NCBI GenBank assembly: GCA_036172245.1
Contig: JAYWIR010000072.1
Span: 186,001 to 250,000, forward strand
DNA: 64,000 nucleotides
From: Raillietiella orientalis
Taxonomy: Eukaryota
Direction of reading: 5' to 3'
Shown: piece by piece, positions 807 to 15,991 of the stretch
Position numbering within the stretch: position 1 is the first letter of the stretch
Layout of the letters: each line of letters begins with the position of its first letter
Position numbers and translations under genes: made by a program
The notes under the pieces: model-generated
Told to the model about the DNA's origin: nothing
What the model saw: only the letters and a program-made list of their open reading frames with translations
Database searches by the model: none

Positions 807-850
807 AGTGGAGAGATTCAACCAAGCTCGAGTAAACGGCGGGAGTAACT
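1..850 (+). rRNA. 28S (LSU) rRNA gene fragment, ending in the helix 69 loop
   Basis: Conserved eukaryotic LSU blocks: GTAAGGGAAGTCGGCAAA..GATCCGTAACTTCGGG, GAATCCGACTGTCTAATTAAAACAAAGCAT, TGATTTCTGCCCAGTGCTCTGAATGTCAAAGT, GTAAACGGCGGGAGTAACT. Confidence 0.95.
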
Positions 851-953
851 TTTATTGGCCCACGCTTTTTACAGAAATGTTTGCCCTAGGAGGGTGAATG
901 AACTGTATCTATGGAGGGTCTGGTTTTACACACACACTGTTTTCACACTAAAT

Positions 954-3900
954 TTAAAGATCTTTGAGGTCAGGGAAAGCCGCACAACACCAGGACGAGT
1001 CCACCGCTGGTGATAAGGGGGCTCGAGTCGTCGATCCGGTGTCCGTCGACGGTCTGCTGGTGGTATGGTCAAAATAGATGTCCCGATCTGCCCGGATCAC
1101 CGAGCACACGATCTCAGGGCGAAGCGCCTTTATTTCTGTGTTGCTCAGGCCCAGGCAGCTGAGGACTGCATCGTTGTTAGGGTGCCAGCTTCCTAGCGAC
1201 CCTACAACGAGTGCATCCACCTTGACCATCCTTCCCTGCGCCTCGTAGTCTCTCTGCAGCACACGGTATTTGGCTATCTTGTTGGCTCGGGCAGTCTCCA
1301 GTGACGCTTGTCTGTTCTCGAAGGGGACAGTCACGTCGACAAGGATGATGCGTCGACCATCAGATGCCACGATATCCGGGCGTAGGGAGCTGTTGATGGC
1401 GGGGTCGGAGCGGTCGATCGGCAGCTCAGGCCATTTGGGTCTGATTACTGGTTCAAGGGTGTTCAGGACCGCATTGTTCAGGACCGCCCGAGGATTCGTG
1501 TTCCCAGGTGTCTGGTGCATTGACACAGCACGTGGGCTAATGTTTCTTTCGGGTAGGGGCAGTTTCGGCATGCCTCTTGGAAGCAAGGGCGCTTGCGGTT
1601 CCCATTAAGAAACAACGGATTTAAGCGTGCCCGGTGTAGGAATCGCCAGTCACAGAACCTTATCAATCGACTGTTGTCGAGAAAAGACATGGACGCAGGG
1701 TGCAGCGCCACGCAGTCGATGATTCGGCCTTGATCTGGTTTGTTTCGCAGGCGTTCAAGTCTCTCCAACCTACGGATGCCCCGTATAGATCTCGCCACGA
1801 TCTTACGGTCAGCCTCACGTAGTGTCTTCCCGGAAACCTCTATCGAGGCTTGGCAGTCGGATATACGCCAGCAAAGCGCTAGGCGCTTAGATGCTTCCCG
1901 GGCACGGGACCAAAAGTCTGCGGGGTCGCCAGATGGGAGGTCTAGAAGGGGTGTCAATTCCCCGTTGAGGTACCTGGCGATTAGTTCCGAGGTGGGACTC
2001 TGCCCCGTCTTACGACGCACTGTCTCTCGCAGAGAGGACCAGGCCAGTTCACGGATCGATGGGTCCGGGCACGAGAGGAGCTTGAATGCTGAGTCAGTGG
2101 CCATGATGTCGGCCTCCTCAGCAAGTATCAAGACTCCTAGGCAGCCCTTGCTGACCGTGCCGTAGAGGTACTCGGTCGATGAGGCTTGGGTGAGAGGGAG
2201 GATCTCTTCCTTTAACGCCTTTCGAATGACATGGTCGAGCGATTGCCAAAAGGCTTTCCGCTTCGAACCCATGCGTGGAGCGTGCACGAATGCTGGGAAC
2301 ACGAATGTCTTAAGGGCATCCAGCTTTTGCCAAGGCGCCAGAGGACAGACGAGCACTTTAGCCACACTGTCAGTTATGTGCTCTTCAAGCGCATGGCTGT
2401 GCATAGCATCAAATCCTACAGGCTTCCCTAAATAACTGTATGTGCCTGCATCTGCTAGCCGAGGGACAGTCTCCCAGGGTATTTGGAGTTCCAGGATCGT
2501 AGTGCAGGGACGAGCATTTTTTGGCGTTGATGGTCAGGCCCAGGCGAGTCGCCATGGAGCCTGCCGCGTTTAGCGCTGTTTGCAATGTCTGTGTGTCTTC
2601 GGCAAGGATGACCAAGTCATCCGCGTACGCAAGCACCTTGATCCCGGGCACATGGTTTTTAATTCACTGGCACAGGGGCACGATGGCTATGTCGAACAAT
2701 AGTCCAGACAGCGGGCAACCCTGTTTCACTCCTCTGCTTATGTGTATCGGTGGTGACAGACCGGCAGATGTTACGATTCTTGTGGTGTTGTCCGTGTACA
2801 TTTCGCACACCAGTTCCACAAAACGATCGCCAGCACCCGCACATTGGAGGGAGCACAACAGTTGGGAGTGGGGGATAGATGCGAATGCGTCCTTCAGGTC
2901 CAGCCACGCGGCGCACACGGTTCGATGTTGGCGCTTACTGTGTTCCAACAGATGTGCGAGCATGAAGTTATGCTCTAGGACGCCGTCAAATGGTAGGAAC
3001 CCTTTTTGATGGGGACCAAGAATACCATTTTGTAGGATCCAGTCCCTCACTCGGCGGGACATGCACTTAGTGAAGATTTTCCCTATCGTCCGACTAATGA
3101 TGAGAGGGCGAAGTTGGGAAATGTCTTCGGTGCCCTGGTTGTTCGCCTTGGGGATAAGGGTGGTCCTGGACTCTTTCCACTCGGCCGGTATACGCCGATG
3201 TTGGAGGCACAGGTTGAACATGGCACACAGAAACTTACACTCTGGGTCCATCCTGCGGAACGCAGAGTATGGAATCCCATCAGCACCGGGTGCTGTATCT
3301 TCACACTGTCTGAGGCAGTTCGCAATCTCGGCCTCCGTAAAGGGGAAAAGGTCCACTTGCTCATGCTGGGGCCGAGTTGTGAGGGCCATGATAGGGGACG
3401 AAAGCCAGGAGTTGCTCCAAAAAGGTCAGTGTAATGCTGGAGGATCCGTTCCGGGTCCGCAGTACAGATGGTAGGAGCGCCGTCCAAAATCTGGCGGATA
3501 TCTCGTCGCCGGTTTCTGCGATATAGGCGCTGAATGTACTGAGGTGTCATCACACTCTGTCTTGTTTCAGGCCTAGGCACTGTGAACGGGCGGAGCCTTA
3601 GATGGCTTTGTATTGTTCGGTACGTCGTTGACAGTACCCTGATTGCAAGACACCAAGGATCCACTGTAGGGGCTCTTTGTACGCGGCTGTCCAGTGTTTC
3701 TGCGGCCTCCTCTAAAAGGAGTCGCGACTGAGGTTGCCGAGGTGCTGGTTGCCTTCGCACTGTTTGGGGGTGAGTTGTGGTTGGAGGGGAATGGCCGGTC
3801 ACGAAGCCGGGTGAGTCCCTTTCCTCTCGCTCACTTTCATCCTCTAACAGGGCGAAGCGGGAACCTGTCGCTCTGGGCGCCGGGGCAGTGTTCCGCGTCG

Positions 3901-13300: not shown

Positions 13301-15947
13301 CGCACTGTTTGGGGGTGGGTTGTGGTTGGAGGGGAATGGCCGGTCGCGAAGCCGGGTGAGTCCCTTTCCTCTCGCTCACTTTCATCCTCTAACAGGGCGA
13401 TGCGGGAACCTGTTGCTCTGGGCGCCGGGACAGTGTTCCGCGTCGGTGTTCGACGGGTGGGATTCTGTGCGCCATCACTGCGTGGACGGTTGTTGGCATT
13501 TGGAGCTAAACTCCGCGGTTGACTACGCCGGTTCTTGACTGTCTGCTACCCTTGATCTTGAGGCGGGTCAGGGGGAGGCGGTATATCGGGTATCAGCGTG
13601 TCAACATGCGGGGGTGCCCTGCTGTGCAATTCGTCTGCAGTTGCGGCTGAGTTCCGCGGCATGACCCGCCTGCGTTCCGTCGCGGATGCTATGCTGCTTC
13701 CGCCCCTACTGACACTCGGGTCGCTTTGCCGCGCACACTCCCGGGCAATCGCATTGTGCCAGCGTGCATGGTTCGCCAGTGCCTTTCTATTGAGGAAGGT
13801 CTGGGCACAGTTTTGCTGTTGGCAGCGGAGAGGAGCCGGGGGTGTGATCGGGGCGAGCCTCGGCCCACAGCGGTGATGCCATACAGGTATGGCTAAGCGC
13901 TGGTTACAGCGGCGACAGAGGAGGTGGGTGCCACGTACCGGTATCCGATGCGCGGTTTGTATGTGTCGTCTAAGCGACCCCAGCAACCGCTTGGGTTCCA
14001 TCCCGGAGGTGGCCCATCTGCATCGCGGTAACGGGCATTCCATGTTCCTGGTCGTTGGATGGAAAACGATGAGAACGTCCTCCATCGTCAGAATGGGAGC
14101 CGTGTATCTTTGGCTGTCCATCGGTGGAGGCTCAGAACTCACCCTGGGAGCCAGGAGAGCTATTTCTGGAACCGTATCGGCGCGTGTCGGGCTCTCGTGC
14201 GAGCGTAATCTGGCATTCGTCCCACGTGGGCATTGCTGATTATTACGTGGTCGCACGTGTGTTCTCGGACGAGTTGAACATTCTGACCGCACTCTGTTCA
14301 TGCCTGATGGGCCTGGTGGCTCATTAGCTGGATTATTGCTGCTCTTTGCGTGGTTTGGCGCATTCTGCCGTAAGCGTTGAAACCGAGGGATGATCGGTCT
14401 TGCGGTCTTCGCTTCGATTCGACCGCCCGTATGTACGCAGGGTGTACGGGAGGCGGCGCAGGAGGGAGGCGCGGGAACAAGACACAGGTTGTCGCCCTCG
14501 GTGACAGGTCTTGTATAAGTTCAAGACCAGTTTGTGAGGGGGGGCAACAGTCAACGTGGAGTGTCCGGACTGTAGCGATTCCTGTTGCGGGACCATGCTC
14601 TCAGAGGAGGTAACACATTGAGGAAGGCGTGCGAAGTAATTGATTTCGGCGCTTGACAGCCTCGTTACCATGACTCTGTGCTGGTATGCCCGGTCGAGGT
14701 CCATCCTGCCTTGTGGATGCACCGATGACGGTGGCTCCAATAGAGGAGGGGGCAACTGGATTGAGTGCTCTGCCACAGTGAGCTCTGTTGGCACTACAGT
14801 GTCCAGGAGTGATGTTGGAGAGTCGGGCGTGCCGATGACTTTGGGGGTTGACCTGGAGGCTCGGCCGGGGGTGTGTAGCCTCCTCTGCTTGGGAGTACTG
14901 CTGCTGCTCGGTCCGGGAAGGTTAAACCAGTTCATCTTTAGCCGGGATAGGTCTCTTGAACTCCACGACGAATCGGTTGAATCATCCTCGTCCCAAGAGT
15001 CTGGGAGCCCAGTTGTAGTGCCGCAGTCCTCTCGTGCCTCGTTCGCAGCACCCTGTACTCTGTCCATGTTCAAGTGTTTCCACTTGTAATGGGCTCTCCT
15101 GAGGCCGGGCCTGCCGAAGGATGCATTGCATAACGGGCACTTATATTTCAGTGTTAAAAGCATTTCTGATAGTGGCACAGGGGGATTGAGGCATCGGTGC
15201 TGCGCTAGCGGTTGCTGCGTGCTCTCATTCTTGTGACATACTACACAGAAAAATCTGACGGCCGAAACATGAGTGCCGTGTATTCGATTGAGGTGGGCCT
15301 TGAGGTTTCTAACTCGGTTCTTAACATCATTTGCCATGGTGGCAAACCAGCAGTCTAAAAGTGGGCATGGCACCGGGAGGTCTGTGCCATGGGAAATCCA
15401 AAGTTCACGCCCGGTAGAGAGGGTGCAGTGAGACGATGGCATACTTAAAAGATGGCGCTTGACGCTTCGCGTGATCACGTGGGAGGAAGTCTCAGAGCCA
15501 ATAGGAGAGCGAGTTCTCCGAGCGGACCAATGGGAGCGCTCGGAAGGGACGCTAAGTTTTCCCGCGCTAAGCGAGGCAACAAAGGATGTTGAAGATCGAT
15601 GTGGTCGATCTCTTGGATCAACCACCGTGGTTCAATTCCGCACAAAATCAGTCAAAGAGGACGTGATGAGGGCCCGGGTGATCGGTTCGAACTGTGCAAC
15701 CCTCTTACCTTCCCGGCAAGTGTGCTCTCTGGTCTAGGCCATGGCAGCACGCAGGCGGGAGATGAGAATGTCCACAGCAGCCACAAAAATTACCACACAG
15801 GCACAAAAGTTGGTTAAAAGGTTCACTGTGGGCAGGAGATGCACAGAACGAAAATTTATGAAGGGTGATCGCTGAAAGTTTTTCACAATCAAGAGTCAAA
15901 CTTCATGCCGCGTCGGAGCTCCGCTCAGACACGTCCGTCGTGTAAGG
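10395..15947 (-). mobile_element. RLE element copy B (duplicate of A, offset 9544 bp), antisense in 28S
   Basis: Same junctions and domains as A; ORF1 and ORF2 both disrupted. Confidence 0.92.
10498..15625 (-). pseudogene. ORF1+ORF2 of copy B, frameshifted and with a premature stop
   Basis: ORF fragments 14333-15625, 14298-14480, 13546-14301, 12208-13305, 11953-12195, 11022-11948 and 10498-11130. Confidence 0.88.
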
Positions 15948-15991
15948 AGTGACGCGCATGAATGGATTAAGGAGATTCCCACTGTCCCTAC

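Follow-up and report, generated by a model that had tools for sequence, protein, structure and literature searches.

An antisense insertion in the 28S rRNA gene of Raillietiella orientalis: dead copies of a retrotransposon with two open reading frames and a restriction-like endonuclease

Background

What element occupies a hairpin loop of the 28S ribosomal RNA (rRNA) gene in Raillietiella orientalis, with its coding strand opposite to the rRNA, and did it reach this site by specific targeting? The question is raised by a 64-kb stretch of DNA (positions 186,001 to 250,000 of contig JAYWIR010000072.1, assembly GCA_036172245.1), referred to below as the window, whose own coordinates are used throughout and in which the copies of the element are lettered A–F. 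An earlier interpretation of this DNA (the original prediction) proposed an element with two open reading frames (ORFs), similar to NeSL, R5 and Utopia and specific for ribosomal DNA (rDNA). Our analysis suggests, with a probability of roughly 0.65, that the window holds dead copies of a bicistronic retrotransposon without long terminal repeats (non-LTR) and with a restriction-like endonuclease (RLE), which when active inserted site-specifically and in antisense orientation into the 28S gene. It is probably an undescribed relative of the known rDNA-specific elements, a group that is the main model for target-primed reverse transcription (TPRT).

Results and discussion

Two full-length copies, A (851–6391, minus strand, 5,541 bp) and B (10395–15935, minus strand, 5,541 bp), share the 3' junction GGGAGTAACT/TTTATTGG (850/851 in A and 10394/10395 in B), at the very positions that had been predicted. 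At the 3' end of A, a 28S fragment (1–850, plus strand), which begins at about position 1616 of the Rfam large-subunit (LSU) model, reaches the hairpin loop and terminates in GGGAGTAACT (841–850); at the 3' end of B lies another partial 28S sequence (9286–10394, plus strand, from model position ~967 to the same loop). On the 5' side the 28S sequence restarts with CGTC at 6392 in A, at 15936 in B and at 9237 in copy C, a diverged 5' fragment (7200–9236, minus strand) that comprises the 5' untranslated region (UTR), ORF1 and the start of ORF2, its 3'-ward remainder being gone. The junction reads ...AGACACGTC/CGTCGTGTAAGGAGTGACGCGCATGAATGG in A and B, the 28S sequence of C likewise following element sequence that ends in ...AGACACGTC, and the 17-mer GCGCATGAATGGATTAA has three occurrences, compared with none in 100 shuffles. 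The original prediction was right about the position of the 5' junction in all three copies, but the literal CGTCATCTAA that it read there is found in C only, A and B having CGTCGTGTAAGGAGTGACGCGCATG. From these points the flanking 28S sequence (CGTCGTGTAAGG...) runs in A over 6392–6644, where it is broken off (at ~6644), and in B over 15936–17499, through the 3' end of the gene, while that of C (CGTCATCTAAGCAG...) spans 49 bp (9237–9285), all on the plus strand. The element reading frames here all lie on the minus strand and the intervening 28S pieces on the plus strand, which agrees with the proposed opposition of the coding strand to the rRNA. The Rfam matches to 28S (1–850, 9199–10394 and 16032–17499 on the plus strand, and a reversed 28S 3' end at 21178–21666) come from alignments that slightly overshoot the true element junctions; beyond the 28S pieces, no other Rfam family reached its gathering score within the window.

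In the Rfam consensus and its structure line, the insertion point falls after AACU, within the 7-nt loop of the hairpin GGGAGU-AACUAUG-ACUCUC, which we take to be helix 69 (E. coli 1906–1924). The ...UUAAGG/U of the same consensus lies 15 nt past the 3' junction; if, as we assume, TTAAGG/TAGC is the R2 site, the predicted distance of 15 nt upstream of it is correct. By count, 28 positions of the Rfam model are absent between the 3' and the 5' junctions, and the ~28 bp of 28S sequence thus lost include what we take to be the R2 site.

Copy C shows ~71% nucleotide identity to A and B (i.e. ~29% divergence), and, measured from the conserved start of the element, GACGTGTCT, its 28S flank restarts at the very nucleotide at which theirs do. 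This 49-bp flank (CGTCATCTAAGCAGTGCCGCGCATG...), which breaks off at a jump to ~967 of the 28S model, is 90% identical between C and A (over 49–52 nt), the adjoining element sequence being far more diverged. The flanks also carry changes of their own: at 6392–6430 and 15936–15974, five differences from the conserved 28S sequence fall in the first 36 nt, all of them to G on the plus strand (CGTCgTgTAAggAG...TTAAgGAG), and the flank of C shows three changes in 49 nt, which differ from those of A and B save for one shared position (TAAT to TAAG). The changes to G at the 5' junction of A and B could be repair scars of integration or could mark a variant rDNA family. The changes in the flanks of A/B and C together are also what one would look for if the 28S-like sequence on the 5' side were carried by the element itself, as a captured antisense leader (CGTC...GCGCATGAATGG), so that the 5' junction would be inherited and only the 3' junction would report targeting; the change common to A/B and C would fit such a leader, and R2 families with 28S-derived UTR sequence are known (PMC5035012). 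However, the conservation of the flank between A/B and C is far above that of the adjoining element sequence, the flank of B continues uninterrupted for 1.5 kb of 28S sequence, as far as the gene's end, and the shared change could be coincidental, with a chance that we estimate at ~1 in 10. A captured leader is in our view very improbable.

Analysis of the coding regions addressed the type of the element. ORF2 (~1,266 codons in copy A, 954–4756, minus strand, with one in-frame stop and three frameshifts) encodes three N-terminal zinc fingers, a reverse transcriptase (RT), a CX2CX8HX4C motif and a nuclease with the pattern PD..DVTV..K..KY. The RT was identified by Pfam RVT_1 (E=3.2e-12), with YADD read in copy B, and is matched by solved R2 structures at E=4e-27. 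The CX2CX8HX4C motif (defined in PMC2790886), located downstream of the RT, reads CRNCPYPKETLAHVLCQC in A and B and has equivalents in two other copies, namely D (22661–27345, minus strand), which represents a third subfamily (~69% identity to A/B) with an intact 3' end and a lost 5' end, and E (18169–20553, plus strand), a 5'-truncated member of the same clade that retains RT motifs B to E, the thumb, the CCHC motif and the nuclease, with an open 440-aa frame at 18847–20169. The CCHC-plus-nuclease part of copy E aligns with solved R2 proteins at E=7e-9. The nuclease of A and B reads RPDIV...ILVDVTV...K..KY, and the 8 element pieces scanned for an apurinic/apyrimidinic-type endonuclease (APE) domain gave no Exo_endo_phos match. 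Judged from sequence, an RT with YADD, a CCHC motif and a PD-(D/E)XK nuclease in place of APE identify the element as an RLE-type (R2-group) non-LTR retrotransposon. No Myb family was found at E<=0.01 in the N-terminal pieces of ORF2, taken from copies that are degenerate.

The second frame postulated by the original prediction is also present. ORF1 (4753–5898 in copy A, minus strand, 381 codons, open) bears a module of three zinc fingers paralogous to the N-terminus of ORF2 (30% identity over 84 aa, E=2e-8). Among 8,000 scored candidates, all of them proteins of similar length, no ORF1 homologue was found at E<=0.01, and an ESM Atlas search with ORF1 returned no more than weak leads of the C2H2 type. 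In comparisons between subfamilies, saturation is seen at synonymous but not at replacement sites: the proportions of nonsynonymous and synonymous differences (pN and pS) are 0.30 and 0.76 for ORF1 (A versus C), 0.17 and 0.74 for the RT (B versus D), and 0.42 and 0.72 for the zinc fingers of ORF2. Therefore, both ORFs were coding, and under purifying selection, during the diversification of the lineage.

The TGA stop of ORF1 overlaps the ATG of ORF2 as ATGA in A and B, and the frame of ORF2 is -1 relative to the tail of ORF1 in A/B and C. Since the ORF1/ORF2 overlap of A and C contains no slippery heptamer for -1 frameshifting, reinitiation is favoured, and termination-reinitiation at the overlapping AUGA is the probable mode of ORF2 translation, a mode for which the UAAUG of SART1 is a precedent. 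The nonamer GGCATGAAC at the start of ORF2 (minus strand) occurs at 4751–4759 in A, at 14296–14304 in B and at 26383–26391 in D, where the frames are disrupted.

As for the untranslated ends, the 493-nt 5' UTR (5899–6391 in copy A, minus strand) contains long blocks that are invariant between A/B and C, including CCAAT-like, CACGTG and GCCATCTT strings, which we presume to be promoter motifs. A search for ribozymes found none: no family reached its gathering score within the window, and over the 5' ends of A and C there was no match at E<=1. The 3' UTR has 103 nt (851–953 in copy A, minus strand) and folds no better than shuffled sequences (z=+1.5); the motif at its terminus shows conservation between A/B and D, and the RNA of copy A would end in ...GCGUGGGCCAAUAAA(A), with no poly(A) tail.

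At E<=1e-3, a search with the RT piece matched 36,275 cluster representatives, and at E<=1e-30 it matched 357 (clusters at 50% identity); the highest identity among the best 150 RT matches was 47%, in a search of 1.84 billion cluster representatives. The nearest named relatives are proteins from Ornithodoros turicata (XP_064462357.1), Amblyomma americanum (LOC144109832), Nephila pilipes (GFT60023.1) and Orchesella (CAL8079908.1), and the named hosts comprise ticks (Amblyomma, Ornithodoros, Rhipicephalus), spiders (Nephila, Trichonephila, Caerostris, Stegodyphus, Araneus, Oedothorax), a scorpion, a springtail, a dragonfly (Ladona), a termite, an adelgid, a crayfish and an ant. Distant matches (24–29% identity) include oomycete proteins, one of which (P0012) combines RNase H with RT, the architecture of Utopia according to PMC4640811; another distant match carries an Ulp1 domain, an architecture of the NeSL type, as in NeSL and Utopia-1_TSP.

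A tree was calculated with IQ-TREE (LG+G4) for 49 rows and 845 columns, the rows being trimmed to the region that matches copy B, the broken copies of the window being read through with X at each break, and none of the rows being a named R2, R4, NeSL-1, R5 or Utopia sequence. Copies B and D (SH-aLRT 99) form one clade with E (100), which is sister (99) to 26 rows; those among them that were looked up and bear names are from arthropods, and several are unnamed proteins from assemblies or metagenomes. The Ulp1-bearing and oomycete proteins fall outside this window-plus-arthropod clade. The element thus probably belongs to an arthropod-rich group related to NeSL and Utopia, as far as protein sequence can tell. 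Target-site deletions accompany all described NeSL elements (PMC3636483), and 28 model positions were lost here.

How does this element compare with the known systems? The closest in target and orientation are LIN9_SM, LIN24_SM and LIN26_SM from the planarian Schmidtea mediterranea, which belong to the R5/LIN lineage of the NeSL clade (Kojima & Jurka 2015, PMC4640811 S6 Fig) and are 28S-specific according to PMC5035012. Like the element described here, they are of the RLE type and antisense (S6 Fig shows the 28S sequence reverse-complemented beside the sense strand of the element), and they come from a clade in which target deletions are the rule (PMC3636483). However, their junctions in S6 Fig differ from the one after GGGAGTAACT: LIN24 and LIN26 are joined to 28S ~80 nt upstream in rRNA coordinates and have homopolymer tails, LIN9 is joined in the GGTAAC/TTTTCTGACACC region, and all three have a planarian host. 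R5 from Girardia tigrina (Burke, Singh & Eickbush 2003) is, according to PMC4640811, another element of the NeSL clade that is specific for 28S.

Utopia elements encode one protein, in which one to three zinc fingers at the N-terminus precede RT, CCHC and RLE (PMC4640811), the same order of domains as in our ORF2, and have precise 3' boundaries. The host ranges overlap as well: Ladona appears in both lists, and ticks and spiders are groups that PMC4640811 lists by other species. Utopia differs in its target, the U2 snRNA gene instead of 28S, and in having one protein instead of two ORFs; its arthropod families show no target-site duplication (PMC4640811), whereas 28 bp of the target are deleted here. 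No match to a U2 snRNA gene was found anywhere in the 64 kb, the flanks being 28S or other DNA.

R2 lacks a poly(A) tail too. It shares with the present element a 28S rDNA site within 15 nt and the RT-CCHC-RLE core, for which there are direct matches to solved R2 proteins. R2 differs in being inserted in sense orientation at TTAAGG/TAGC and co-transcribed by RNA polymerase I (Pol I), with release by a hepatitis delta virus (HDV)-like ribozyme (PMC3774820), and in having a single ORF with a Myb domain (PMC13580325); here the orientation is antisense, no ribozyme was found at the 5' end, there are two ORFs, and the degenerate copies gave no Myb match.

Both the 28S site and the lineage appear new. 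The literature searched, whose coverage stops short of the R5 description and of the inventory of Fell et al. 2025, mentions no insertion into the loop of helix 69 and none at a distance of 15 nt upstream of the R2 site. Might the biology be as we describe it and the family already be catalogued with its site and orientation, either by Fell et al. 2025 in their inventory or in Repbase? That inventory of RLE retrotransposons was built with RT and RLE profiles (PMC13580325), and the 357 clusters that match the RT at E<=1e-30 indicate a large and heavily sampled group, both of which would favour a rediscovery. The silence of the searched literature on this site, within the coverage just given, and the top identity of 47% speak against it, and we regard it as somewhat unlikely.

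The second half of our question, whether the site was truly selected, depends on the number of independent events. Regions 1–6644 and 9545–16192 form a single duplicated block of 6.65 kb (98.947% identical over 6,649 columns), in which the two 28S flanks on the left agree at 850/850 positions (1–850 versus 9545–10394), the element part differs at 58 positions and by 2 gap letters (1.05%), and the right flank differs at 6/253 aligned positions (2.4%). This distribution suggests that the left flank was homogenised after the duplication. A and B share defects in ORF2 (one in-frame stop and two frameshifts) and have private ones as well (in B, one in-frame stop in ORF2 and one frameshift in the tail of ORF1), and the ratio of nonsynonymous to synonymous substitution rates (dN/dS) between them is 0.75–0.89. 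Given the shared defects, the single aligned block and this ratio, A and B are segmental duplicates, made at the DNA level, of an already dead copy, which drifted after duplication. Copy C, whose 5' junction coincides with theirs to the nucleotide in spite of 29% divergence, therefore represents a second event. Both independent intact 5' ends are thus at the site, as is one of the two independent intact 3' ends.

A number of observations weigh against a specific, bicistronic and novel 28S element. Because A and B are one block, their pair of junctions counts as one event, so that the independent junctions at the site number one on the 3' side (A=B) and two on the 5' side. Three copies lie elsewhere: D has an intact conserved 3' end (TTTTTATTTCCACGCTTTT, compared with TTTTATTGGCCCACGCTTTT in A) that adjoins non-28S DNA, E sits in spacer DNA between the arms of an inverted repeat, and F (21704–22049, minus strand), a fragment of the nuclease region with 78% identity to A/B, lies beside the reversed 28S 3' end (~21690), at a different 28S position (~model 3007). 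Every copy in the window is broken, the inserted 28S units are also rearranged and mutated, and the window contains no uninserted copy of 28S. Metagenomes were scanned for TAAACGGCGGGAGTAACT with any base but A behind it, i.e. for anything joined directly after GGGAGTAACT. This yielded 65 loci, mostly decayed repeats or variants of rRNA in which a loop base is replaced; in none of the 65 did tblastn find a match (E<=1e-3) to 10 protein pieces of the element. In a relative (P0084, on a 5.7-kb contig), both zinc-finger modules occur in one continuous frame of 1,565 aa, so the two-ORF state is derived and not family-wide. Finally, the planarian insertions are a precedent for antisense insertion in 28S, and orientation by itself is therefore not new.

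Some of these places deserve a further remark. The possibility that the 3' flank of D is decayed 28S sequence was rejected: its local alignment score is 9, compared with a shuffle mean of 10.1, and 441/500 shuffles are as good. The plus strand at this joint, GGAGTTCAGC/T, resembles the 28S target, GGAGTAAC/T. The adjoining region (22204–22660) encodes on the minus strand a C2H2 finger weakly similar to the third finger of ORF1 (E=2e-4) and is perhaps a very diverged, 5'-truncated member of the family in tandem. Among the metagenome loci, none of the 8 with unrelated sequence past the motif has an rRNA match. One locus (L064; 66–84, minus strand, of a 1,808-bp contig) reads GGGAGTAACT and then CTAGGGTTAGGG..., i.e. 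telomere-like repeats, like a chromosome end healed at the same loop position; this contig is short and gave no rRNA match at the threshold.

An alternative that would accommodate the copies off the site is an element of weak or no specificity, which landed once in 28S by chance, the unit then being multiplied and shuffled by rDNA recombination, and the junction of C arising by recombination or conversion. The duplication that links A and B, the positions of D, E and F, and the scrambled rDNA graveyard in which they all lie would be expected in this case; homogenisation was evidently at work, with 850/850 identical positions in the left flank against 1% difference in the element, and Utopia families range from strict to weak specificity (PMC4640811). 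However, C is ~29% different right up to the junction nucleotide, and conversion should have homogenised the neighbouring element sequence too; the ~20 nt at the 5' terminus of the element and the junction are precise in two subfamilies; and a target deletion combined with a precise 3' junction is a signature of RLE-type TPRT. We consider a chance landing unlikely. The original prediction had taken the 5' junction shared by two subfamilies as an argument for real specificity; the match to the nucleotide stands, while the A/B pair is one event and D, E and F are off the site. On balance, true site specificity for 28S seems fairly probable, on the evidence of two events in scrambled, dead rDNA.

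Assuming such specificity, we infer the nick positions, transcription, translation coupling and role of ORF1 from the anatomy, junctions, homology and past purifying selection described above. By analogy with TPRT of the R2 type, the ORF2 protein would nick the rRNA-sense strand in the loop of helix 69, 5'-GGGAGTAACT^ATGAC, and the freed 3' OH would prime cDNA synthesis on an element RNA ending in ...CCAAUAAA(A), with no poly(A) tail. The other strand would be cut 28 bp onward in rRNA coordinates, before CGTCATC, and the intervening 28 bp, including the R2 cleavage site, would be lost. In the orientation of the element the second cut would lie upstream of the first, an arrangement that leads to a deletion, as it is the relative positions of cleavage that decide (PMC4640811). 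Since the element is antisense to Pol I transcription, it would not be co-transcribed with the pre-rRNA, and the claim of the original prediction that it cannot use Pol I read-through is supported to that extent. It would have had to be expressed from its own conserved 493-nt 5' UTR or by antisense transcription of the spacer; transcripts antisense to 28S would start at GACGUGUCU. ORF1 would supply a zinc-finger protein, paralogous to the DNA-binding N-terminus of the ORF2 protein, and ORF2 would be translated by termination-reinitiation at AUGA.

A bolder version of this scheme may be put forward tentatively, as possible rather than probable: a split target would be read by two paralogous zinc-finger proteins, the ORF1 protein taking one side and the N-terminus of the ORF2 protein the opposite one, and 28 bp would separate the cuts; an internal promoter of the Pol II type would drive expression counter to Pol I, reinitiation at AUGA would yield the ORF2 protein, and the element would represent an undescribed lineage of R elements that leaves R2-immune units behind. 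If it is true, deletion of the R2 cleavage site would make each rDNA unit that receives an insertion immune to R2, i.e. it would amount to direct competition between rDNA parasites.

The remaining features of the window concern its rearrangement. At 9285/9286 the 28S sequence leaps from ...GATTCCCACTGT, past the insertion site, back to GGGATGAACC (~model 967); what surrounds B and C is 28S sequence in rearranged pseudo-units, with no regular rDNA repeat. A direct repeat of 148 bp (6787–6934 and 7064–7211, 89.9% identity) lies between the truncated 28S flank of A and copy C. An inverted repeat composed of the 28S 3' end and spacer (16997–18168 and 20554–21693, 83% identity over 1,190 bp) has copy E exactly between its arms, both of which stop at the same spacer position, which is not expected from an ordinary insertion. 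The region 28000–64000 is crowded with remains of APE-type long interspersed elements (RVT_1, Exo_endo_phos and zinc-knuckle gag-like ORFs), several families of which occur more than once in the window. Of the 11 ORFs that were scanned from this region, none was recognised as a cellular gene.

Conclusions

The value of these copies is limited by their all being dead, by the two events on which specificity is judged and by the planarian antisense 28S precedent, and the finding is of interest mainly to transposon specialists. Retrotransposons specific for rDNA are under development as gene-writing tools for the 28S safe-harbour locus (PMC13580325, PMC11371274). The range of known solutions to target recognition would be broadened by a lineage with another, universally conserved site in 28S, and likewise by the opposite orientation of that lineage, by its separate ORF for zinc fingers and by its not depending on Pol I for co-transcription. 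Such a lineage would, in addition, provide a natural case of two rDNA parasites competing over overlapping sites.

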